Source: Planctomycetota bacterium
GTDB taxonomy: Bacteria > Planctomycetota > MHYJ01 > JACQXL01
Reading direction: 5' to 3'
NCBI GenBank assembly: GCA_040753835.1
Contig: JBFMDM010000003.1
Span: forward strand, 1-52,597
Length of the DNA: 52,597 bases
The notes under the pieces were generated by a model, which saw nothing but the letters and a program-made list of their open reading frames with translations, made no database searches and had not been told where the DNA came from. The translations under genes and the position numbers were made by a program. Below are positions 14,576 to 45,546 of the stretch, in pieces. Position 1 is the stretch's first letter, and each line of letters begins with the position of its first letter.

Positions 14576-14702
14576 AAATAGCCAGTAATCAGTAGTCGGT
14601 AGTCAGTAGTCGGTTCCACGGTGGTTTACTGCCTACTTCTTTATATATAAATCTAATCAAACAATTTGACAACTAATAAAGTGTTTGTTATCAATAAGCC
14701 CG

Positions 14703-14930
14703 ATGTTACAGGTAACACTGCAAAACCGGAAGGAGATAATCTTTGAGGGAATGGCAGAATCGGTATTCCTGCCGGGCGAATACGGCGAGTTTGAGGTCCT
14801 GCCGTTCCATGCGCCCATCATCAGCACCCTCAAAAAGGGAAAGTTAAGAATTGACGACCTTTTCCTTGAGATAAACGGCGGAATTGCTAAAATGGACGAG
14901 GCCAACAAGTTATTATTGTTGGTGGAGTGA
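14703..14930 (+). CDS. atpC: F1 ATPase epsilon subunit, N-terminal beta-sandwich only (orphan)
   Basis: IFEGMAESVFLPGEYGEFEVLPFHAPIISTLKKG...INGG; 75 aa with no C-terminal helices. Confidence 0.8.
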   Translation: MLQVTLQNRKEIIFEGMAESVFLPGEYGEFEVLPFHAPIISTLKKGKLRIDDLFLEINGGIAKMDEANKLLLLVE

Positions 14931-15013: not shown

Positions 15014-15313
15014 ATGTCAGTAAGAATCAGAATGGTACGCCAGGGCCGCAAGAATGAACCCCATTTCCGTATCGTGGTAACCGACAAACGCAAGAAGATT
15101 GACGGCGCCTATATAGAAAATCTGGGTAATTACGAGCCCAAGGCCGGACCGGACAAGAAAATCACCATCAAGGACGAACGTTTAAACTACTGGGTCAAGC
15201 AGGGCGCGCAGGTGAGTGATGCCTTGTCGGCCATCCTGAAGAACCTCGGCAAAATGCCCAAGTCAGAAAAGCCCAAGAAGGCGGCAAAGCCAAAGGCCAA
15301 GGCGACTAAATAA
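15014..15313 (+). CDS. rpsP: 30S ribosomal protein S16
   Basis: MSVRIRMVRQGRKNEPHFRIVVTD...DGAYIENLGNYEP...YWVKQGAQVSD. Confidence 0.97.
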   Translation: MSVRIRMVRQGRKNEPHFRIVVTDKRKKIDGAYIENLGNYEPKAGPDKKITIKDERLNYWVKQGAQVSDALSAILKNLGKMPKSEKPKKAAKPKAKATK

Positions 15314-31892: not shown

Positions 31893-32042
31893 ATTTCGGC
31901 TTGGTAGAGCCCATCCTTCCAGAACCTCTTTTGATTGTTTGATGCGCCAGTTAACGCCTTTTGTTCTGCTGAGCTGCTTATCCGGGCTCATAAATTACAC
32001 ATTTTTCTTGTGTCTTGGCGGGAATGGTGTATATTATTATTA

Positions 32043-32270
32043 ATGCAAGAAACCATTGCCTTAATTCTGATTCTCCTGACCGTGAGTTTGGGCCCGTCAT
32101 TTGTCATTGCGATGGTGGGCTATGCCAGCATCCAGGCCCTGGGCCGCAATCCTTCAGCCGCCCCTAAAATCCAACTGGCAATGCTCCTGGCTTTTATCTT
32201 TGCCATCGGCATCGCCTTTATTTCACTTTTGGTGGTCTTTAACCTTTTTGCGCCCAAAGCAGGCGGATAA
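32043..32270 (+). CDS. atpE: ATP synthase subunit c-like proteolipid lacking the conserved carboxylate
   Basis: 75-aa helical hairpin with LGRNP loop (RQP/RNP); helix 2 reads AFIFAIGIAFISLL, where FAEAIA is expected. Confidence 0.8.
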   Translation: MQETIALILILLTVSLGPSFVIAMVGYASIQALGRNPSAAPKIQLAMLLAFIFAIGIAFISLLVVFNLFAPKAGG

Positions 32271-32272
32271 TT

Positions 32273-33028
32273 ATGGAATTAAGAGAAATACTGTTCTTAA
32301 TCGGCGGGTTTGTAGTGGTGGCCGTGATTCTGGCCCTTCTGTTAAGGATGGTCCTCTCAGGCCAGTCCAATACGGCCATAGAGCGCTTAAAGCGCATCAA
32401 CCAGGACAACCTCCAGCGCGAACTGGAACTGAAGAAGAAACTGGACGAGGCCGAGACCCAATACCAAAAACGGCTGTCCGAGGCCTCCGGCGAAATCCAG
32501 AAGATGCGCGAGAAGATGGAAGAAGAGGTCTCCCTGATAAAACAACGTGTCGTGTCATCGGCCGAGAAGGAGAAAGAAAGCATCCTGGCTGACGCCCGGC
32601 AGGAGGTGGCAGACCTGAAGAATGAACTGACCCGCTCGGCAAATGAGCGGATTGCCGGGTTTGCCGAAGAGGTGATAACCAAATTATTCGCCGGCTCGGC
32701 GGACAGCGATAAAATAGCGGCCGGCCTACATCAGCATTTCCTGGATGAAGCAGTAAAGAAAATCAGGTCGTTGAAGAAGGAGATGCTGTCATCGGCCCTG
32801 GCCGGCTCAGGCGAGATTGTGGTTTCGTCCAGATTGGCCCTGACCGCGCACCAGAAGCAGGCGCTGAACGAAACGCTTTCCGAGGTATCCGGCAAGACAG
32901 TTAAGATTGTTGAAAAACCAGCGGACAGCAAATACCTGGCCGGCGTTTCCGTCAAGATTGGCAACCTGGTCATAGACGCCACGCTCAATAACCGGCTTAA
33001 GGAAATTATTGCGGAGACAGCCAAATAA
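32273..33028 (+). CDS. atpF: ATP synthase b-like subunit fused to a delta/OSCP C-terminal domain
   Basis: N-terminal TM helix, long coiled coil, C-terminal VSSRLAL...LAGVSVKIGNLVIDATLNNRL. Confidence 0.8.
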   Translation: MELREILFLIGGFVVVAVILALLLRMVLSGQSNTAIERLKRINQDNLQRELELKKKLDEAETQYQKRLSEASGEIQKMREKMEEEVSLIKQRVVSSAEKEKESILADARQEVADLKNELTRSANERIAGFAEEVITKLFAGSADSDKIAAGLHQHFLDEAVKKIRSLKKEMLSSALAGSGEIVVSSRLALTAHQKQALNETLSEVSGKTVKIVEKPADSKYLAGVSVKIGNLVIDATLNNRLKEIIAETAK

Positions 33029-33055
33029 AACATCAGCCAACGGGGAAATAATTAT

Positions 33056-34546
33056 ATGGTTATGCCAGCCGCCCATACGGGCGAGCCCGCCCCTCTGGGA
33101 CGGGAATTAGTAGAAATCAAAGAGGTCGGGACGGTCAAAGACGTCCGCCGCGGCATTGCCCGGATAGAAGGATTGACCTCCTGCATCAACTCCCAGATGG
33201 TCCATTTCGCCTCCGGCAGCAAGGGCATTGTAATGGGCTTTAACGAGAAAGAGGTGATGGCCCTGGTAATGGGAGACGAGACCTCGGTTTCTTCGGGCGA
33301 GGAGGTTACCAGCAAAATAGAACCATTCCGCGTGCCGGTCGGCTACGGCTATCTCGGCCGGGTGGTCAATTCCCTGGCCGAGCCGATTGACAATAAGGGG
33401 CCAATCAAGCCGGATGATTCCTATCCGGTCTTCCGCGAGGCAACCGGCGTGATTGACCGTATGCCTGTGGACACGCCCCTGGAGACCGGCATCAAGATTA
33501 TTGACCTGGTCATTCCCATCGGCCGGGGCCAAAGGGAACTGGTCATCGGCGACCGGATGACCGGCAAATCCACGCTGGGTATGGATACCATCATTAACCA
33601 AAAGGGTAAAGACGTTTTGTGTATCTACTGCTGTATCGGCCGGAGCCAGGCGTCGCTGATGAAGACGGTGCAGTTGTTCCAGGAATACGGTGCGATGGAC
33701 TATACCATCGTGGTAGCCGCGACCGGCGCGGATTCGGCCAACGCCCAGTATCTGGTGCCTTACACGGCCTGCGCGCTGGGCGAGTATTTTATGCTGGCCG
33801 GCAAGAATGTCTTTGTGGTCTTTGACGACCTGACCCGGCACGCCTGGGCCTACCGGCAAATTGCGTTATTGTTGGAACGCGCGCCCGGACGCGAGGCGTA
33901 TCCCGGCGACATTTTCTACATACACTCCCAGATGATGGAGCGGGCTGGAAAACTCAAACCCGAACTGGGCGGCGGCACTATGACCTTTATGCCCATTATT
34001 GAGACCATCCAGGGCGATTTCACCGGCTTTATCCCGACCAACCTGATTTCCATCACGGACGGACAGATTTACCTTTCCACCTCGCTGTTCTACGAGGGAT
34101 TCAAGCCGGCCATTGATATGGGACTGAGTATTTCTCGCGTGGGCTCCAAAGCCCAGCATCCAGCCATCAAGGAGGTCTCCAAGATGCTTCGCCTGGAATA
34201 CGTCCAGTACCGGGAACTCCTGAAACTGACCCGGCTGAGGACGCGCTATTCACCCGAGGTGGAGACCAAACTCAAGCGCGGACAGATTCTAACCATCCTC
34301 TTTACCCAGGATAAATACAAGCCGCTGCCGGTTGAAGAGGAAGCGATAATATTCTATGCGTTCAAGATAAGAATCCTTGACCTGATGACCGTGGACGGCG
34401 TCCTGTTATTCAAGACGAATATTATGGAGTTTATGAGCAAGCATTATCCACAGGTGGTGCAGAAGATAAGGGAGAGCGGGAAACTCTCGCCGGACATAAC
34501 CGAGCAACTGGACCGGGCACTGATGGAGTTCTTTAAGCGGAAATAG
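33056..34546 (+). CDS. atpA: F1 ATPase alpha subunit (divergent)
   Basis: PIGRGQRELVIGDRMTGKS, DDLTRHA, PGREAYPGDIFY, PTNLISITDGQI and SISRVG motifs. Confidence 0.95.
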   Translation: MVMPAAHTGEPAPLGRELVEIKEVGTVKDVRRGIARIEGLTSCINSQMVHFASGSKGIVMGFNEKEVMALVMGDETSVSSGEEVTSKIEPFRVPVGYGYLGRVVNSLAEPIDNKGPIKPDDSYPVFREATGVIDRMPVDTPLETGIKIIDLVIPIGRGQRELVIGDRMTGKSTLGMDTIINQKGKDVLCIYCCIGRSQASLMKTVQLFQEYGAMDYTIVVAATGADSANAQYLVPYTACALGEYFMLAGKNVFVVFDDLTRHAWAYRQIALLLERAPGREAYPGDIFYIHSQMMERAGKLKPELGGGTMTFMPIIETIQGDFTGFIPTNLISITDGQIYLSTSLFYEGFKPAIDMGLSISRVGSKAQHPAIKEVSKMLRLEYVQYRELLKLTRLRTRYSPEVETKLKRGQILTILFTQDKYKPLPVEEEAIIFYAFKIRILDLMTVDGVLLFKTNIMEFMSKHYPQVVQKIRESGKLSPDITEQLDRALMEFFKRK

Positions 34547-34548
34547 TC

Positions 34549-34644
34549 AACACGAATGAAACGAATATGGCGAATCACACGAATTATATAGCGCCAAGAT
34601 AAATATTATTCGGCCCATTCGTAATTATTCGTGCGATTCGTGTT
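34549..34644. repeat. CGAAT tandem motifs facing their inverted copies (gene-less hairpin spacer)
   Basis: AACACGAAT..ACGAAT..GCGAAT..ACGAATT on the left and ATTCGG..ATTCGT..ATTCGT..ATTCGTGTT on the right, between atpA and atpG. Confidence 0.7.
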
Positions 34645-34656
34645 TAGGTGTTTGAG

Positions 34657-35616
34657 ATGAAAACAATATCGGAACTGAAAAAAGACCTGGTCTTCAACCG
34701 CGAGATGAACGAGTTGATGGACATCCTCAAGAAGACCGCGATATTTGAGTTTCAGTCGCTCTTTAACCGGCGCAAGATGCAGACCATACAGGAGAAATAC
34801 GTGTCGGCCCTGGAGGATTTACTCAAGATATTCCCCCCCGGAGCGGAACACCCGTTCCTGACCAACCCGCTGGAAAAGGTTACCCTCATCCTGGTTACTT
34901 CTGATATGGGTTTCGTGGGCGGGTTGAATACCGAGATAGTTGACACCGGCCTAAGGCAAATCAGGAGGAAAGACGAACTGCATCTTCTGGCATTGGGCGA
35001 AAAGGGGTATCTGCAACTGGAGGAAAAGGGCTACAAGTTTGATTTCCTGCCCGGCATCGGCGCGGAAATGAACTTCGCGCTGGCCGAAAAGGTCCGGGAT
35101 TACATCTATGCCACCTGCTGGAAGTACAAGGTCGGCCGGGTGATAATCGCTTACCCTAAGTTTATCTCCTTTGCCCGGCAGGAAATCGCCACCGATGTCC
35201 TGATACCCTGCGGGTACCTGTTCAAGACGGCCCCTTCGGCCCCTGATGGGACCTCAGGGCAAGATTCAACATCGCCAACAGAAACCGAGAAAGCCAAGCC
35301 CGTCAGCGCGTCCCGGATACCCACCCGTTCCAGAGGCGGGGGGACAAAGTTCTTATTTGAGCCGTCGCCGGCCAAGGCGCTGGATTATCTGCTCAAAACC
35401 TATCTGGCTTACAAGATTTACGATATCTTCTGGCAGGCGAAACTGTCCGAATTCGCGGCCCGGAGCATGCATCTGGACGGCTCAATGCAGGAACTGACCG
35501 AGATGAAAAAGGGCATCCAGTTGCAGTATTTCCGCAGTAAGCACGAAATTACGGACCGAACCATCAGGGATATCTTCGGGGGAAGGATGGCAACGTTGCG
35601 AAAGTCGCGCAATTAG
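34657..35616 (+). CDS. atpG: F1 ATPase gamma subunit (divergent)
   Basis: LVTSDMGFVGGLN, FEPSP, SEFAARSMHL...RSKHEITD; position between alpha and beta. Confidence 0.88.
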   Translation: MKTISELKKDLVFNREMNELMDILKKTAIFEFQSLFNRRKMQTIQEKYVSALEDLLKIFPPGAEHPFLTNPLEKVTLILVTSDMGFVGGLNTEIVDTGLRQIRRKDELHLLALGEKGYLQLEEKGYKFDFLPGIGAEMNFALAEKVRDYIYATCWKYKVGRVIIAYPKFISFARQEIATDVLIPCGYLFKTAPSAPDGTSGQDSTSPTETEKAKPVSASRIPTRSRGGGTKFLFEPSPAKALDYLLKTYLAYKIYDIFWQAKLSEFAARSMHLDGSMQELTEMKKGIQLQYFRSKHEITDRTIRDIFGGRMATLRKSRN

Positions 35617-35620
35617 CGCT

Positions 35621-37458
<1,838 letters not shown>

Positions 37459-37571
37459 CCGCATCATTTAATAGTAGATAAGTGTATAAGTAAATAGGTT
37501 GATAAGGAAATAATGGTTCTTGTTGCACTTATCAACGTATCATCTTATCAACTTAACGGGGAGTTATAATT

Positions 37572-39875
37572 ATGGTCAAGAACGAAAATATTCTCGGCGA
37601 CATACTGGTCAAAAAAGGCATCATCACGGCCAAGGCCCTGGAACAGGCCCAGGAGGAAAAACACAAGAATTACAACCGCCTGATTTCAACCATCATCAAT
37701 CTCAACCTGGCCAAGGAGGACGCCATCATCCGGACATTCTCCGAGGAACTGAAGATGCCTATTATCCGGATGCGGGACACCAATGTGGAAGCCGCCGTAA
37801 TCAAGAAGGTGCCGGTGCGTTTTGCGGCCTATTACCGCTTTATGCCCGTCAAACTCGTCTCGCCGCCGCCCGACGCCTCGGGCAAAATCTACGAGACGCT
37901 CACCATTGCGGTCTCGTCCCCCCTGGATATCCGGATGCGCGACGAACTCCGGCTCCAGGTCGGCTGTGAAATAGAAATGGCACTGACCAGCACGGACGAG
38001 ATTATGCAGGCCATCAAGAAATACTACGGCTTTGCGGCCGATACCGTGGAAAAGATGTCCAAATACGGGATGAACAACATCACCGAATCGGCCCTGACCC
38101 AGGCAGACGAGAAGGTGGAGGACATAGAAACCGCAGAGAAGGCCGAGGACGCCTCGGTCATCAAACTGGTCAACCAGATAATCCTTGAGGCGCACGCCAA
38201 GCGCGCCACGGACATCCATATTGAACCCTACCGCGGCAAAATAAAACTCCGTTACCGCGTGGACGGCATCCTCTATAATATGAATATCCCGCCCGCGATG
38301 AAGAAATTCTTCCCGTCCATCCTCTCGCGCATCAAGATAATGTCCAACCTCAATATTGTGGAGCGCCGGCTTCCCCAGGACGGCAGATGCATCGTCAAGA
38401 CCGAGAAGGAGACCTTTGATATGCGCGTCTCCATCATCCCCACCCCCTGGGGCGAGAGCATCGTCATCCGCCTGTTGCCCACCAAGATGCTCTACTCGCT
38501 GGCCGAACTGGGCCTTGAGCCTGAGGAGGTCAGCACCCTAAACGGGCTCCTGGACAAGCCGCATGGCATCCTCTTCGTTACCGGCCCGACCGGCTCCGGC
38601 AAAAGCACCACGCTTTATGCCTGTCTCCAGAAACTCAATACCCAAGACGTCAAGATTCTCACCCTGGAAGACCCGATAGAATACGAACTTGAGGGCATCA
38701 CCCAAATCCAGGTAATGCCCGATATCGGACTGACCTTTGCCCGTGGCCTGCGCAGTATGCTCAGGCACGACCCGGACATAATGATGGTCGGCGAGGTGCG
38801 CGACTTTGAGACCGCCGAAATCACCATCCGCATCGCGCTGACCGGACACCTTATCTTCTCCACGCTCCATACCAACGATGCGGCCAGTTCGGTCACCCGG
38901 CTTATAGATATGGGCGTTGAACCGTATCTCGTGACCTCGTCGGTTGAGGCATTTGTCGCCCAGCGGTTAGTCCGGACCATCTGTCCGCAATGCAAGATTG
39001 AAGACACCCTGGTTCCCTTTGAACTGCTCAAGAAGGAATTCAACCTGCCGGACAACGTCACGGCCAAGTCGGCCAAAATCTACAAAGGCAAGGGCTGTGA
39101 TAATTGCAACTTCACGGGCTATCTGGGCCGGACCGCGATTTACGAGATTCTCCTCTTAAACGACAAGGTCAAGCGGCTGATTCTGCAGAAGGCACCGTCT
39201 GACGAACTGAAGATGGCCGGCGTGGAAAACGGGATGCGCACCCTGCGCCAGAGCGGCTGGGCAAAGATTAAGGCCGGGCTTACCACCTTTGACGAGGTTA
39301 CCAGGATTACCCCGTCCGACCCTCCGGGTCACCCTGTGCTCGCCTCGCCAGGCGGGGGCGTCCCGGCCAGCCAGGCAAAAGCCGCGCCCACTAAAATTAC
39401 TGTGTCGGCAGAACCGTCGCTCCGCACCATTTTTGGTAGCGAGGGCGCTCACGCTCCATCTGATTTGAGCGGAGCGCTCAGCCAGACCGGCGCAACCAGG
39501 GTTTTCAAGCGGGCCAACCTGAGGATACCCGTAGAATACAAACTCTACAAGGCATCAATGAACGCCTCGCCTGAGGCCGCATCAAAACCGGTCAAGACCG
39601 TGGCAGTCGGCATCTCGGCCAGCGGACTGCAGTTTGAGGCCAAGGAGTCCCTTATAGTCGGCTCTATTATAAACCTCAAGGTATTCCTGCCTTCCATTCC
39701 GACCATTGACTGCCTGGTCAGGATAATCAGGGTGGAGGTGGAGCACGAACCGCAGAAACGGGCCGAGTTGTCCGAGGACAAATACTGGGTCAGTTGTTAC
39801 TATCTGGACATTGAAAGCGCAGCCAAGGCGTCCCTGGACAACTTCGTCCTGAAGAACATCGCCTCCGTTTCGTAG
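37572..39875 (+). CDS. PilB/GspE-family secretion or pilus ATPase with C-terminal PilZ-like domain
   Basis: ATDIHIEP, RYRVDG, ERRLPQDGR, GPTGSGKST, EDPIEY, LRHDPD, TGHLIFSTLHTND, tetra-Cys motif; C-terminal RVFKR...GISASG. Confidence 0.92.
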   Translation: MVKNENILGDILVKKGIITAKALEQAQEEKHKNYNRLISTIINLNLAKEDAIIRTFSEELKMPIIRMRDTNVEAAVIKKVPVRFAAYYRFMPVKLVSPPPDASGKIYETLTIAVSSPLDIRMRDELRLQVGCEIEMALTSTDEIMQAIKKYYGFAADTVEKMSKYGMNNITESALTQADEKVEDIETAEKAEDASVIKLVNQIILEAHAKRATDIHIEPYRGKIKLRYRVDGILYNMNIPPAMKKFFPSILSRIKIMSNLNIVERRLPQDGRCIVKTEKETFDMRVSIIPTPWGESIVIRLLPTKMLYSLAELGLEPEEVSTLNGLLDKPHGILFVTGPTGSGKSTTLYACLQKLNTQDVKILTLEDPIEYELEGITQIQVMPDIGLTFARGLRSMLRHDPDIMMVGEVRDFETAEITIRIALTGHLIFSTLHTNDAASSVTRLIDMGVEPYLVTSSVEAFVAQRLVRTICPQCKIEDTLVPFELLKKEFNLPDNVTAKSAKIYKGKGCDNCNFTGYLGRTAIYEILLLNDKVKRLILQKAPSDELKMAGVENGMRTLRQSGWAKIKAGLTTFDEVTRITPSDPPGHPVLASPGGGVPASQAKAAPTKITVSAEPSLRTIFGSEGAHAPSDLSGALSQTGATRVFKRANLRIPVEYKLYKASMNASPEAASKPVKTVAVGISASGLQFEAKESLIVGSIINLKVFLPSIPTIDCLVRIIRVEVEHEPQKRAELSEDKYWVSCYYLDIESAAKASLDNFVLKNIASVS

Positions 39876-41259: not shown

Positions 41260-44200
41260 ATGTATTTAGGCATTGACATCGGTTCTGTAGCGGTCAAGGC
41301 GGTGGTTCTTGACAATGACCTCAAGATAAAAGAGACCCAATACGTGCGCTCGCACGGCCAGCCCTTTGAGACCACGCTTGCCGTACTCAAGGACGTCTTT
41401 ACCCGCCATAATCCCGAACACATAGAATTCATCGCCACAACCGGCACAGGCGGCAAGAACCTGGCCACATTCACCAGCGCGGCCTTTGTCAACGAAATCA
41501 CGGCCCAGGCCACGGGCACCAGCACGCTCCATCCCAAGGTCAAGACCATCATTGAAATCGGCGGAGAGGACGCCAAGGTCATTAAGGTGGATTCGTATTA
41601 CGGCAAGGCGGTGCGGATACTGGATTTCGCCACGAATTCGGCCTGCGCAGCCGGTACCGGCTCGTTCCTGGACCAGCAGGCCTCGCGGTTAGGCATAAAG
41701 ATAGAAGACGTGGGCCAGGAGGCGCTGAATTCCAAGCATCCCTCAACGGTCGCGGCCCGGTGCAGTGTCTTTGCCAAGAGCGATATGATTCATCTCCAGC
41801 AGGTCGGCACCTCGGTGGGCGACATCCTGGCCGGCCTGTGCTTTGCAATGGCCCGCAATTTCAAGAGCAGTATTGCCAAGGGCGTCAATATAGAAAAACC
41901 CATCGCCTTCCAGGGCGGCGTGGCGGCCAACCAGGGTATGCTCAGGGCGTTCAGGGAGGTTCTCCAGATAAACGAGAACGACATTATCGTGCCTGAATAT
42001 TTCGCCTTTATGGGCGCAATCGGCGCGGTGCTGTCCCTGGCTCATTCCTACCGGCCCAGGAAGGTCAAGAGCGTTGCAGTCGGGCCGGCCCGAATTATCA
42101 GCGACATAGAGCGGTATCTGGCCGAGCGTAAACTGGACCTGCAGAGACAGGCGCCGCTCAAGAACGACGACTATAACATACAGGTTGAACCGCTCCAACT
42201 CAAGGATGGAGAGAAGGCGGAGGCGTATGTCGGCGTGGATGTGGGCTCTATCTCCACCAATGTGGTGGTGATTAACAATGACAACCAGGTGCTGGCCCGA
42301 CGTTATCTGATGACGGCCGGACGGCCTATTGAGGCGGTGCGCCGCGGACTTCTTGAGGTCGGCGCGGAGATTGCAGATAAGGTCATCATCAAGGGCGCGG
42401 GCTCAACCGGCTCAGGCCGGCATATGACCGGCGAATTCTTCGGCGCGGACGTAATCAAGAACGAGATTACCAGCCATGCCCGGGCCGCCGTGGCGGCTGA
42501 CAAGCGGGTGGACACCATCTTTGAAATCGGCGGGCAGGATTCCAAATACATCTCGCTCAAGGACGGCGTGGTGGTTGATTTCACGATGAACAAGGTCTGC
42601 GCGGCCGGCACCGGCTCGTTCCTGGAGGAGCAGGCCGAAAAACTGGCCATTAAGATTAACAAGGAATTCGCCGAGCGGGCATTCTGTTCGGGCGGGCCGT
42701 GCTCTTTGGGCGAGCGTTGCACGGTTTTTATGGAATCGCAACTGAATTATTACAAGCAACAGGGCGTGGAAAAGAACGACCTCATCTCCGGACTGGCCTA
42801 TTCCATTGTGGAGAATTACCTCAACAAGGTGGTGGAAAAGCGCAAGGTGGGCGAGCATATTTTCTTCCAGGGCGGCGTGGCCTTTAACCGGGCGGTGAAG
42901 AACGCCTTTGAGCAGGTCACCGGCAAGAAGGTGATTGTCCCGCCCCATCACGACATCCTCGGCGCGGTCGGAGCGGCTATCCTGGCCAAAGAGGAACGCC
43001 AGGCCAATGATTATAAAACCAAGTTCAAGGGCTTTGACCTGAAGCATATCCAATATGAATCCTCATCCTTTGAGTGCACGGACTGCTCGAATAACTGCGA
43101 GATACACAAGGTGAAGTTCAGTCAGCCGGCAGTCCAGCAGTCCAACCCGCCTGACGGACGGGCAGGCAGTCTAGCAAGAATAAAGACATTGCACTACGGC
43201 TCGCGTTGCGGGAAATACGATGACGCCGATGATAAACAGGCGTCGCACATTGTCAGGGAGCGGCTGCCTCATTTCTTCAGGGAACGGCAGCGAGTGTTAT
43301 TAGAGTCAAAGAGCCAACAGACCAGCAGACCGGCAGGACGGCCGACCATTGGCATCCCGCGCATCTCGGTATTTTACGACCTTTATCCGCTCTGGCGCAC
43401 CTTTTTCTCGGAACTGGGCCTGGAGGTGGTTTTATCGGACGACACCAACCGTTCGGTTATCAAGAAAGGCGTGGAGAACGTGGTGGCAGAGCCGTGCTTC
43501 CCAATCAAAACCGCGCACGGACATATCATAAACGTCCTGGAAAAGAAGGTTGATTACCTGTTCATCCCCTTCCAGGTGAATATGCCGCCGCTAAGCAAAC
43601 ACTTTGACCGGTCTTACAACTGCCCTTATATCCAGGCGTTACCGGACACGACCAGGAGCGCCATTGATTACAAGAAATACGATACCAAGGTTATCCGGCC
43701 GGTATTTTATATGGACCGGGGCCGGAAGGAGATAGAGAAGACCTTAAAGCAAATAGCAAAAAGCGTAGAGCATCGGGCAAATATAAACCAGTGTATAGAG
43801 AAGGCGTTTGAGGCCCAGGAAAAGTTCGACCGCTGGCAGTCAGAACACGGCAAGGAAGTTCTGGCGAATACAAACCAGCCCTCCCTGGTGCTGGTGACCC
43901 GCTCGTATAACAGTTATGACACGGGCCTTAACCTGAATCTGGTGGATAAACTGCGCAAACTGGGGATGCCGGTAATCCCGATTGACTTCCTGCCGATGAA
44001 AGAGATAGCCGAGGAAATCGGTCGTGATTATCCGTATATGTACTGGCGCTCGGGCCAGAAAATCTTGGCCGCGGCCCGTTATATCGGCCGAACGCCTAAT
44101 CTATTTGCGGTGTATCTGACCAACTTCAACTGCGGGCCGGATTCCTACATCACCAAATTCTTTGAGAAGGAGATGCACGGCAAGCCGTATCTGTCGCTGG

Positions 44201-45546
44201 AGATAGACGAGCACAGCGCGGACGCGGGAATGCAGACCCGTTGCGAGGCGTTTATTGACACGATGAGGCACGCCCGCAACATGGCCATCAAGAGCAGTCA
44301 TCCGGCTGCGACCGTGCCGCTGGCGTCGCTGTCCCGGAACGGGCGGACAATTTACATCCCCTATATGGACGACCACGGATTCATTGTGGCGGCCGCATTC
44401 CGCTCGGCCGGCATTGACGCCGAGGCACTTCCGCCTTCGGATGACGACAGTTTGAACATCGGACGGAAATACACCTCGGGCCGCGAGTGTTTTCCGAGCA
44501 TCATCACCACCGGAGATATTATCAAGAAAAGCAACAGCCCCGGTTTCAAGGCGGAGCACAGCGCCTTCTTTATGCCTTCGGCCAAGGGGCCCTGCAGATT
44601 CGGGCAATATAATAAACTGCACCGGATGGTGCTGGATGAGGTGGGCTTGGCCGACGTACCTCTGGTAACCTTTGACCAGACCGCCAATTTCCACAAGGAT
44701 ATGGCGGTGCTCGGCTCGGCCAAGTTCAAGAAGAACGTCTGGCGCGGGCTGGTGCTGTTGGACCTGCTCCAGAAAATAGCCCGCGAGACCAGGCCTTACG
44801 AGACGACAAAGGGCGAGACCAACCGGGTCTATGCCGAATCGTTCAAGGCGTTGCAGGATTTTGTTGAATCAGCCCCAAAGGAAAACGGCGATATTGAGGG
44901 CTTTACCAAGAATATTATCAGGCATTTTGACGCCATCAAGACCGACCGCTCCAAGCTCAAGCCGAAAATCGGCATCATCGGAGAGATTTATGTTCGGAGC
45001 AATCCCTTTACCAATAATTACGTGGTCTCCAAGATGGAAGAACTGGGCGCCGAGGTTTCCCTGCCGCCTTTTGAGGAGTGGCTGGATTACATTGATTATA
45101 TCCGCGAGGAGGATTACCTGCTCAAGAACGATTATCTGAATTACCTCAAGCAGAAGATAACCCTGGTATTCCAGGAGCGCGAGGCGAATAAAATCCGCAA
45201 GCACTTCAAGGGTAAAATCCGCCATTTCCATTATGAATCTTCAACTGCGAAAGTGGTCAAGCACGGCTCGGCCTATATTGAGCCAGCCCTGAGGGGCGAG
45301 GCGGTCCTGAGTTTGGGCCGTGCCGAGGAATACGCCCACGCCGGATTCAATGGCATCCTCAATATCATCCCCTTCGGCTGTATGCCGGGCAATATCGTCA
45401 CCGCCCTGCTCAAGCGGTTCAAGGACGAATACAACATCCCAGTCCTGACTATGACCGTGGACGGCATCAAGAATCCGGGCGAGGAGATGCGTATAGAGGC
45501 GTTCGTCAGGCAGGCGGCTGAGTTGGTAAATACCTCTAAACATTAA
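41260..45546 (+). CDS. acyl-CoA dehydratase activase (two BadF/BcrAD ATPase domains plus DUF2229-type domains)
   Basis: GIDIGS and GVDVGS, EIGGEDAK and EIGGQDSK, two CAAGTGSFL, CFPIK, NCGPDS, IDEHS and PFGCMP motifs. Confidence 0.92.
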   Translation: MYLGIDIGSVAVKAVVLDNDLKIKETQYVRSHGQPFETTLAVLKDVFTRHNPEHIEFIATTGTGGKNLATFTSAAFVNEITAQATGTSTLHPKVKTIIEIGGEDAKVIKVDSYYGKAVRILDFATNSACAAGTGSFLDQQASRLGIKIEDVGQEALNSKHPSTVAARCSVFAKSDMIHLQQVGTSVGDILAGLCFAMARNFKSSIAKGVNIEKPIAFQGGVAANQGMLRAFREVLQINENDIIVPEYFAFMGAIGAVLSLAHSYRPRKVKSVAVGPARIISDIERYLAERKLDLQRQAPLKNDDYNIQVEPLQLKDGEKAEAYVGVDVGSISTNVVVINNDNQVLARRYLMTAGRPIEAVRRGLLEVGAEIADKVIIKGAGSTGSGRHMTGEFFGADVIKNEITSHARAAVAADKRVDTIFEIGGQDSKYISLKDGVVVDFTMNKVCAAGTGSFLEEQAEKLAIKINKEFAERAFCSGGPCSLGERCTVFMESQLNYYKQQGVEKNDLISGLAYSIVENYLNKVVEKRKVGEHIFFQGGVAFNRAVKNAFEQVTGKKVIVPPHHDILGAVGAAILAKEERQANDYKTKFKGFDLKHIQYESSSFECTDCSNNCEIHKVKFSQPAVQQSNPPDGRAGSLARIKTLHYGSRCGKYDDADDKQASHIVRERLPHFFRERQRVLLESKSQQTSRPAGRPTIGIPRISVFYDLYPLWRTFFSELGLEVVLSDDTNRSVIKKGVENVVAEPCFPIKTAHGHIINVLEKKVDYLFIPFQVNMPPLSKHFDRSYNCPYIQALPDTTRSAIDYKKYDTKVIRPVFYMDRGRKEIEKTLKQIAKSVEHRANINQCIEKAFEAQEKFDRWQSEHGKEVLANTNQPSLVLVTRSYNSYDTGLNLNLVDKLRKLGMPVIPIDFLPMKEIAEEIGRDYPYMYWRSGQKILAAARYIGRTPNLFAVYLTNFNCGPDSYITKFFEKEMHGKPYLSLEIDEHSADAGMQTRCEAFIDTMRHARNMAIKSSHPAATVPLASLSRNGRTIYIPYMDDHGFIVAAAFRSAGIDAEALPPSDDDSLNIGRKYTSGRECFPSIITTGDIIKKSNSPGFKAEHSAFFMPSAKGPCRFGQYNKLHRMVLDEVGLADVPLVTFDQTANFHKDMAVLGSAKFKKNVWRGLVLLDLLQKIARETRPYETTKGETNRVYAESFKALQDFVESAPKENGDIEGFTKNIIRHFDAIKTDRSKLKPKIGIIGEIYVRSNPFTNNYVVSKMEELGAEVSLPPFEEWLDYIDYIREEDYLLKNDYLNYLKQKITLVFQEREANKIRKHFKGKIRHFHYESSTAKVVKHGSAYIEPALRGEAVLSLGRAEEYAHAGFNGILNIIPFGCMPGNIVTALLKRFKDEYNIPVLTMTVDGIKNPGEEMRIEAFVRQAAELVNTSKH

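Follow-up and report, generated by a model that had tools for sequence, protein, structure and literature searches.

A subunit a-less F-type ATPase encoded beside a GspE/PilB-type ATPase in a Planctomycetota bacterium, probably a non-chemiosmotic rotor

F-type ATPases are the textbook example of a rotor coupled to ion flow. The stretch of DNA analysed here, 52,597 nucleotides of contig JBFMDM010000003.1 (assembly GCA_040753835.1, Planctomycetota bacterium) and called the window below, carries a set of F-type ATPase genes that lacks subunit a and runs directly into a gene for a PilB/GspE-type secretion ATPase. We consider this cluster likely to represent, in Planctomycetota (a Brocadiia-labelled lineage), a widespread module of a-less F-type ATPase plus GspE/PilB, in which an ATP-hydrolysing, non-chemiosmotic rotor would serve a machine resembling a type II secretion system (T2SS) or type IV pilus (T4P). 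The observations behind this are the gene content, the absence of subunit a, the loss of the c subunit carboxylate under purifying selection, the conserved synteny and the separate orthologue clades. The cluster and its parts are as follows (aa, amino acids; ORF, open reading frame).

32043-39875, + strand: whole cluster of seven ORFs, namely c, b/delta, alpha, gamma, GxxExxY insert, beta and PilB/GspE-PilZ (Pfam and NCBIfam assignments)
32043-32270, + strand: c subunit, 75 aa; PF00137, 23 bits against a cut-off of 24
32273-33028, + strand: b/delta fusion, 251 aa; PF00430 at residues 17-138 and PF00213 at residues 174-245
33056-34546, + strand: alpha subunit, 496 aa; TIGR00962, 562.9 bits against a cut-off of 484.45
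34648-35616, + strand: divergent gamma subunit, 322 aa; PF00231, 108 bits; TIGR01146, 77.7 bits against a cut-off of 194.45
35694-36083, + strand: GxxExxY / PD-(D/E)XK ORF, 129 aa; TIGR04256, 94 bits
36088-37458, + strand: beta subunit, 456 aa; TIGR01039, 586 bits against a cut-off of 462.85
37459-37571, + strand: spacer between beta and pilB, 113 bp, AT-rich, with GGGGAG 8 nt ahead of the pilB ATG
37572-39875, + strand: PilB/GspE-type secretion ATPase, 767 aa; PF00437 (425.6 bits), PF05157 (46.9 bits) and PF07238 (22.6 bits)

The original prediction, made from the window, had described this gene order on one strand, and both the ORFs and the family assignments agree with it. The catalytic motifs that it had called intact were found, namely GGAGLGKT (Walker A) and GVGERIREG (GER) in beta and GDRMTGKS and SISRVG in alpha. 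On these motifs, and with both subunits above the atpA/atpD equivalog cut-offs, the cluster encodes an alpha3beta3 head with the P-loop, catalytic Glu and alpha Arg finger of a canonical F1Fo. The Walker A and GER.REG motifs are present in 33/33 atypical betas. The c subunit is a two-helix hairpin carrying the GRNPSAAPKI loop of its family. The b/delta fusion has a membrane helix at its N-terminus, a b-like coiled coil and an OSCP/delta-like C-terminus; it is the sole peripheral-stalk gene, is kept in 12/12 related loci and matches the alt_F1F0 B model TIGR03321 over its full length, though below threshold (49 against 224.7 bits). Alignment of gamma places the start used in relatives at the M at 34657 and reveals a variable low-complexity insert at about residues 195-235. 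The PilB/GspE protein combines an MshEN-like N-terminus, a T2SSE core and a C-terminal PilZ domain. Its T2SSE match identifies it as an ATPase of the GspE/PilB type, but it misses both equivalog cut-offs (GspE, 576 against 630.25; PilB, 576.1 against 675.65) and the choice between the two subtypes is therefore left open. The PilZ domain keeps RxxxR, and the D of DxSxxG is replaced by G in the window and by A in the related genomes G001 and G002.

The atypical cluster is not the ATP synthase of the cell. The assembly to which the window belongs is 92% complete in 280 contigs, and a full housekeeping set lies on other contigs, including a second alpha (contig C88) and a second beta (C14). On C88 are an atpI-like gene, the genes for a, c, b, delta and alpha, and the start of gamma, and the housekeeping c keeps its carboxylate (ALIETL). 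The gamma gene ends on C14, where a small ORF and beta are also found, and the housekeeping epsilon is on C94. The search for atpB and for a second ATPase that had been proposed originally thus located a full F1Fo holding the only detectable subunit a, since the sole PF00119 match over the cut-off in this genome is the subunit a in the operon on C88. Exactly one PF00119 match, always in the housekeeping operon, was obtained in 15 of 17 genomes (this one and 16 relatives), and none was obtained in two that are 55% and 77% complete. A hidden Markov model (HMM) built from 15 a subunits was then run on 80 metagenome loci (569,018 bases), which had been kept for further analysis from a contig scan with the c alignment, on 14 Planctomycetota loci and on the window. 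It gave no credible subunit a among 4184 ORFs; the lone match (E 0.036) was on the wrong strand, over alpha. The absence of a from the cluster, as claimed at the outset, thus extends to the window and to every related locus searched.

The second element of ion translocation, the carboxylate on helix 2 of c, is also missing. In the window c the E or D of a canonical F1Fo is replaced by I (FAIGIAF against FAEAIAI in relatives), and there is no acidic residue elsewhere in either helix. The carboxylate is also gone in G001 (V), G002 (I), G003 (I) and G009 (T), while E is kept in the c of G004, G006, G008 and G012-G015. The ratio of nonsynonymous to synonymous substitution (dN/dS) for c, b/delta, alpha, gamma, beta and pilB is 0.06-0.18 when the window is compared with G001 and G002, both of them E-less, and is 0.08-0.10 for c itself; synonymous sites are saturated for pairs more distant than these. 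Given that the carboxylate is gone yet dN/dS is low, selection keeps a complex which is unable to bind the coupling ion at the canonical site. Two tandem c genes were seen in G004, G008 and G015, with one of the G015 copies lacking the carboxylate.

The link to pilB was followed through relatives, as had been suggested, and was found to be conserved. pilB comes directly after beta in 9/13 cluster-bearing genomes of the order (that of the window, G001, G002, G003, G006, G007, G009, G013 and G015), and every cluster-bearing genome of the order has a PilB-PilZ orthologue, including the four in which the gene is not adjacent. In one of these, G004, the orthologue is followed by a GspF/PilC homologue. 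In G055 and G295, two distant Planctomycetota, the genes run short epsilon, c, b/delta, alpha, gamma, beta and pilB, and G295 has pilC next. Among the 80 metagenome loci there were 22 informative ones, having a full beta and at least 1 kb after it; pilB is the next gene in 21 of these, with gaps of -4 to 174 bp, and the exception is the G004 contig. GspF/PilC is among the next two genes in 13/15 loci, and in some loci epsilon is placed between gspE and gspF. The conserved neighbours recognised with Pfam are T2SSF, T2SSG (122.8 bits), two N-methyl pseudopilins, T2SSK, a REC-GGDEF protein and Peptidase_MA_2. As the neighbours are GspE/F/G/K homologues, the partner looks closer to a T2SS pseudopilus than to a classical type IVa pilus (T4aP).

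The original prediction had noted that epsilon is absent. This is true for the cluster but not for the system, because a cognate short epsilon is present in the same window.

14703-14930, + strand: short epsilon of the atypical complex, 75 aa; PF02823, 46.7 bits; alternative TTG start at 14685

This gene is displaced about 17 kb upstream of the cluster and adjoins rpsP (15014-15313). Its product is the beta-sandwich domain alone, covering positions 7-72 of the 130 in TIGR01216. An epsilon-like gene of 75-79 aa lies directly upstream of c in G004, G008, G012-G015, G055 and G295, and the short epsilon of the window is homologous to these products (41-63% identity, blastp). Two epsilon-like genes are thus present in the genome, the copy on C94 being the orthologue of the epsilon which follows the housekeeping beta in relatives. 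Neither the two-domain epsilon nor the separate b and delta of a canonical F1Fo is found in the atypical set, where epsilon has its N-terminal domain only and b and delta are fused. The housekeeping epsilon (C94:5412-5714, 100 aa) likewise consists of the N-terminal domain only; in this genome it is not beside the housekeeping beta, whereas its orthologue follows beta in several relatives.

The original prediction had also called for phylogenies of alpha and beta, and the beta part is answered by a 65-row tree, made up of 33 atypical, 19 housekeeping, 8 N-ATPase and 3 intermediate betas with two alpha sequences as outgroups. In it the atypical betas make up a single clade apart from the housekeeping and N-ATPase betas, with a stem of 1.01 and support of 100 in the Shimodaira-Hasegawa-like approximate likelihood ratio test (SH-aLRT), and the order of the window is a sub-clade within it (SH-aLRT 98). 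In this sampling the atypical clade is sister to the N-ATPases plus intermediates (SH-aLRT 98), a placement that is unsafe because of long branches and a distant outgroup. In the PilB tree 26 F-linked proteins, including that of the window, split from the five other PilB-like proteins of the genome (SH-aLRT 100), so that the linked PilB is a distinct orthologue group. When beta was compared with solved structures, ordinary F1 betas gave 490-526 bits and the beta of the Mycoplasma mobile G1-ATPase gave 348 bits. In both trees G055 (locus L096) and G295 (L097) nest among metagenome sequences and not in the order of the window, which suggests either transfer between lineages or mis-binned contigs. 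Three further Planctomycetota betas (L217-L219, from G138, G178 and G143) reach 655-660 bits with the N-ATPase beta model, whose cut-off is 752, and fall next to the true N-ATPases; a regular expression for GER.REG found no match in two of them, and the three may represent a further F-type variant.

The distinctive gamma was used to follow the distribution of the cluster. A strong match (E <= 1e-35) was obtained in 12/15 other genomes of the order and in 0/25 other genomes of the class. Among 401 sampled genomes of the phylum eight had a strong match: the genome of the window, five of the order, G055 and G295. The genomes G010, G011 and G016 are without the cluster, and the best PilB match in them is 41-46% identical. 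A gamma profile found 112 representative clusters at E <= 1e-30 in a library of 1.84 billion representatives, while a search of the ESM Atlas with gamma gave generic gamma clusters only. When metagenome contigs were scanned with the c alignment, at least 511 of 598 candidate stretches were confirmed, and a scan of contigs from named genomes with the gamma alignment gave at least two loci, both from relatives already known.

Further partners are seen around the fuller loci and on other contigs of the genome. Among 16 loci with enough upstream sequence, a giant repeat surface protein is encoded upstream in 12 and a bitopic membrane protein of about 268 aa in 10. The predicted structure of the latter (mean predicted local distance difference test score, pLDDT, 71.8) has a signal peptide, a beta-sandwich, a helical bundle and a C-terminal membrane helix; Foldseek gave no PDB match at E <= 0.001, and the single-domain form has no Pfam match. 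The corresponding ORFs of loci L137, L141 and L167 have a C-terminal end that looks GGDEF-like by eye, which suggests a transmembrane signalling input of cyclic di-GMP (c-di-GMP) to the system. In the genome of the window the partners are scattered, with GspG/I/J/K-like and PilM/GspL-like genes on C1 and GspF-like genes on C126 and C11. An open-ended repeat ORF of at least 4902 aa (C18:3-14711) is homologous to the giant surface proteins found upstream of the cluster in G055, G295 and the metagenome loci. Its C-terminal stretch of about 250 residues matches the 268-aa membrane protein, and the two appear to be fused here.

A locus of this type is already known, having been published for Omnitrophota in 2023. 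Seymour et al. 2023 (PMC10066038) describe, in the text available, a non-respiratory 'symbiotic' F-type ATPase beside type-4a pilus clusters, in agreement with the pilus-linked atypical F-ATPase clusters of Omnitrophota mentioned in the original prediction. They found it in 56/111 Velamenicoccia species, with both gene sets no more than 10 kb apart on 57/66 contigs. The cluster in the window resembles that locus in having divergent F-type alpha and beta apart from the respiratory set (as the beta tree indicates here) and next to PilB-type genes, pilB starting 113 bp after beta. Its beta and PilB also share clades with those of metagenome loci which have the full layout. It differs in its Planctomycetota host, its dispersed layout, the GspE-PilZ fusion and the carboxylate-free c. 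Set against the accessible part of that paper, in which a missing a, a short epsilon, a b/delta fusion and the c-ring site are not described, the new elements are a second phylum (Planctomycetota), a full F1Fo alongside, a scattered layout in which PilZ is fused to GspE, and a c under purifying selection that has no carboxylate. The Omnitrophota alpha is reported there to cluster with Mycoplasma type 2/3, while the window alpha scores 563 bits against atpA and 311-421 bits against the Mycoplasma models, which points the opposite way although these are scores and not a tree. A 2026 preprint (10.64898/2026.06.07.730766) gives, in the portion accessible, alpha and beta in 125/176 Omnitrophota genomes and gamma in only 30; this low count would fit a gamma as divergent as the one seen here. 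West-Roberts et al. 2023 (10.1101/2023.11.21.568195) report T2SS-like loci and pilZ genes beside giant genes, and the term 'F-type' is absent from the text available. Full-text word searches, confined to open-access papers, found nothing relevant on carboxylate-free F-type c-rings or on an a-less F-ATPase with pili in Planctomycetes.

The cluster was also compared with better known enzymes. Compared with canonical F1Fo, the alpha, beta, gamma, epsilon N-domain, c and b/delta are homologous and the catalytic motifs are intact; the cluster differs in lacking subunit a and the c carboxylate, in having one fused stalk gene and a divergent gamma, and in forming a separate long-stem clade. N-ATPase operons contain a subunit a, and the window does not. 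The scores against the alt_F1F0 models are all below the cut-offs (beta 533/752, alpha 505/750.5, B 49/224.7, gamma 18/282) and eight true Planctomycetota N-ATPase betas form a clade of their own, so that membership of this group was rejected. The likeness lies in a long b without a separate delta, the b/delta fusion aligning end to end with the alt_F1F0 B model, and in a second F-type operon beside the housekeeping one; N-ATPases are the alternate F1Fo of Dibrova et al. 2010 (PMC2881411). The type 2/3 F1-like ATPases of Mycoplasma and the gliding G1-ATPase of M. mobile (PDB 9io5) are similar, as far as the accessible sources go, in being an extra F1-like ATPase beside a genuine F1Fo for which a job other than ATP synthesis has been proposed; any connection with large surface proteins is no more than an analogy. 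In the accessible text of Beven et al. 2012 (PMC3369863) the Mycoplasma clusters have seven genes, four of them alpha-, beta-, gamma- and epsilon-like and three for unrelated (membrane) proteins, with no c or b, unlike the window with its c and b/delta. Membership was rejected here too, the scores against NF045934, NF045936, NF045858 and NF045863 being below the cut-offs (405/570, 438/850, 311/520 and 421/600). The flagellar or type III export ATPases FliI/YscN were rejected at 168-211 bits against the TIGR01026 cut-off of 379.5, and distinct alpha and beta genes are present rather than the gene for a homohexamer. On the secretion side, the likeness to T2SS GspE and T4aP PilB consists of the T2SSE, MshEN and PilZ domains and of the GspF, GspG and GspK homologues in fuller loci; the window protein differs in falling below both equivalog cut-offs and in sharing a clade with the F-ATPase-linked proteins.

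The module as we understand it is a non-respiratory F-type ATPase with a short epsilon, the c subunit, one b/delta stalk protein and alpha, beta and gamma, but no subunit a. It is inherited along with its own GspE/PilB ATPase, which belongs to a pseudopilus system resembling a T2SS or T4P, and fuller loci add GspF, GspG-type pseudopilins, a REC-GGDEF protein and the giant surface protein. In the mechanism that we propose, the alpha3beta3 head would hydrolyse ATP and turn a rotor of gamma, epsilon and the c-ring against the b/delta stalk with no translocation of ions, and in this lineage the ring would bind no ion at all. The output, either motion or the ATPase cycle itself, would serve the secretion or pilus machine or the surface protein handled there, and c-di-GMP might regulate this by way of the MshEN and PilZ regions of GspE. 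Hydrolysis, rotation, mechanical work and c-di-GMP control are what we infer from the sequences. Given that there is no channel subunit and no ion site in the ring, and that the genes are co-inherited with a secretion or pilus ATPase, the atypical ATPase probably burns ATP and does not make it. The idea of a non-chemiosmotic motor in the original prediction is to this extent supported: the cluster is not the only ATP synthase of the cell, and the pilB adjacency is conserved in relatives.

A number of observations weigh against the proposal. pilB is not adjacent to the cluster in 4/13 genomes of the order (G004, G008, G012 and G014), where the PilB-PilZ orthologue (59-67% identity) is on another contig, and G005, which is 95% complete, has no ATPase cluster yet keeps a PilB orthologue (C41; L226 1483-3309; 608 aa, 79% identity, without the PilZ part). 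The counts of loci overstate their independence because several contigs are near-duplicates or kin, and both the beta and PilB trees were built with the 'quick' setting of IQ-TREE, with SH-aLRT support only and without bootstraps. The short epsilon had been considered as a mark of a hydrolysis-only enzyme. This is weakened by the equally short housekeeping epsilon; the feature is not specific to the atypical complex and cannot be used as such an argument. Alpha and beta pass the atpA/atpD equivalog cut-offs, so that catalysis in either direction would be possible. A highly diverged or a shared subunit a may exist, and the genome is 92% complete. Finally, E is kept in 78/82 c genes across the 80 metagenome loci; three of the four E-less genes come from close relatives of the window, and the fourth is an additional c paralogue. 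Ion binding, or the partner of this residue, may therefore matter in most of the family and the lineage of the window may be atypical.

That most family members still have the carboxylate is what chiefly keeps a shared or hidden ion path among the rival explanations. The cluster would then be a second, genuinely ion-coupled F1Fo, an alternative ATP synthase or ion pump using the housekeeping a or an unrecognised a-like protein, with pilB as its neighbour for regulatory or historical reasons. Such an enzyme would agree with alpha and beta scoring over their cut-offs, with the presence of c, stalk, gamma and epsilon together, with the 78 carboxylate-bearing c genes, and with the one subunit a that the genome does encode. 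We nevertheless regard it as improbable, given that the window c lacks the carboxylate and is still under purifying selection, that a second a turned up neither in the 15 genomes nor in any locus, and that the housekeeping a has its own c within the same operon. The GspE/GspF synteny, tight and deep and in some loci with epsilon between the two genes, would also be hard to obtain by chance.

The F1-like head might instead act in the manner of FliI-FliH-FliJ, as an ATPase which handles substrate or activates a gate for export of the giant surface protein, the c-ring being a membrane anchor that bears no torque. In its architecture the b/delta fusion matches what is described for FliH, a giant surface-protein gene is upstream in 12/16 loci, C18 holds a homologue of 4902 aa or more, and loss of the carboxylate fits a passive anchor. 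We judge this unlikely, however, as the full gamma-epsilon-c rotor set is kept under selection, the FliI/YscN models are far below cut-off (168-211 against 379.5 bits) and no export-gate homologue was seen among the conserved neighbours. That the adjacency is accidental, or that the cluster is a decaying remnant, is scarcely credible. The locus is indeed fragmented, with epsilon 17 kb off and GspF, the pseudopilins and the giant protein on other contigs, a selfish-looking GxxExxY ORF lies inside it, and c has lost its key residue. All of the frames are intact, however, with dN/dS of 0.06-0.18, the adjacency is kept across deep divergence, and the ATPase and PilB gene sets co-occur, so that these conservation data contradict such an origin.

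If the a-less ATPase is a rotor serving the secretion or pilus machine, a whole rotor without an ion channel, inherited with a secretion or pilus ATPase, would amount to a rotary motor put to mechanical use. The loss of the c carboxylate under purifying selection is comparative evidence, independent of the missing a, against a need for ion translocation. A more specific and more speculative form of the proposal, which we put forward as a possibility, is that the c-ring is a purely mechanical rotor: an ATP-driven F1 head would spin the carboxylate-free ring, and the ring's coupling partner in the membrane would be either the GspF platform with its pseudopilus or the anchor of the giant protein, the whole forming a rotary drive gated by c-di-GMP. 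If this were true, the system would be an analogue of the Mycoplasma gliding motor or of the Bacteroidota giant-adhesin rotary motor, derived from a complete F-type rotor, and the lineage of the window, without an ion-binding site, would be a natural proof that ion flow is dispensable.

The remaining features concern the borders of the cluster and its insert. The original prediction had given c a promoter-like sequence of its own, in the gap which precedes it.

31893-32042, + strand: gap of 150 bp between a NERD-domain gene and c, a possible operon start

This was not borne out by a consensus scan, which called no promoter in the gap and gave 12 sites in the whole region against 7.2 +/- 2.3 expected; the only promoter-like element there is a -10-like TATATT, picked out by eye 12 nt ahead of the c ATG. 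The spacer between beta and pilB gave no terminator call in the promoter/terminator scan, which as a whole gave nothing above chance. The genes upstream of c (NERD, arginase-family and Lgt) are not conserved neighbours in relatives. The GxxExxY ORF between gamma and beta has no counterpart at the same junction in 12/12 related loci and is taken not to be part of the machine. Both F-type operons of the genome have a small, probably selfish ORF at this junction, that of the housekeeping operon (C14:373-759) encoding a four-helix-bundle protein (TIGR02436, 99.8 bits). In the metagenome loci L163, L166, L172 and L173 the atypical cluster has two tandem alpha genes. Downstream of the cluster, at 41260-45546 on the + strand of the window, lies a gene for a 1428-aa fusion of the CoA-enzyme activase type, with two BcrAD/BadFG ATPase domains, DUF2229 and an HGD-D-like part.

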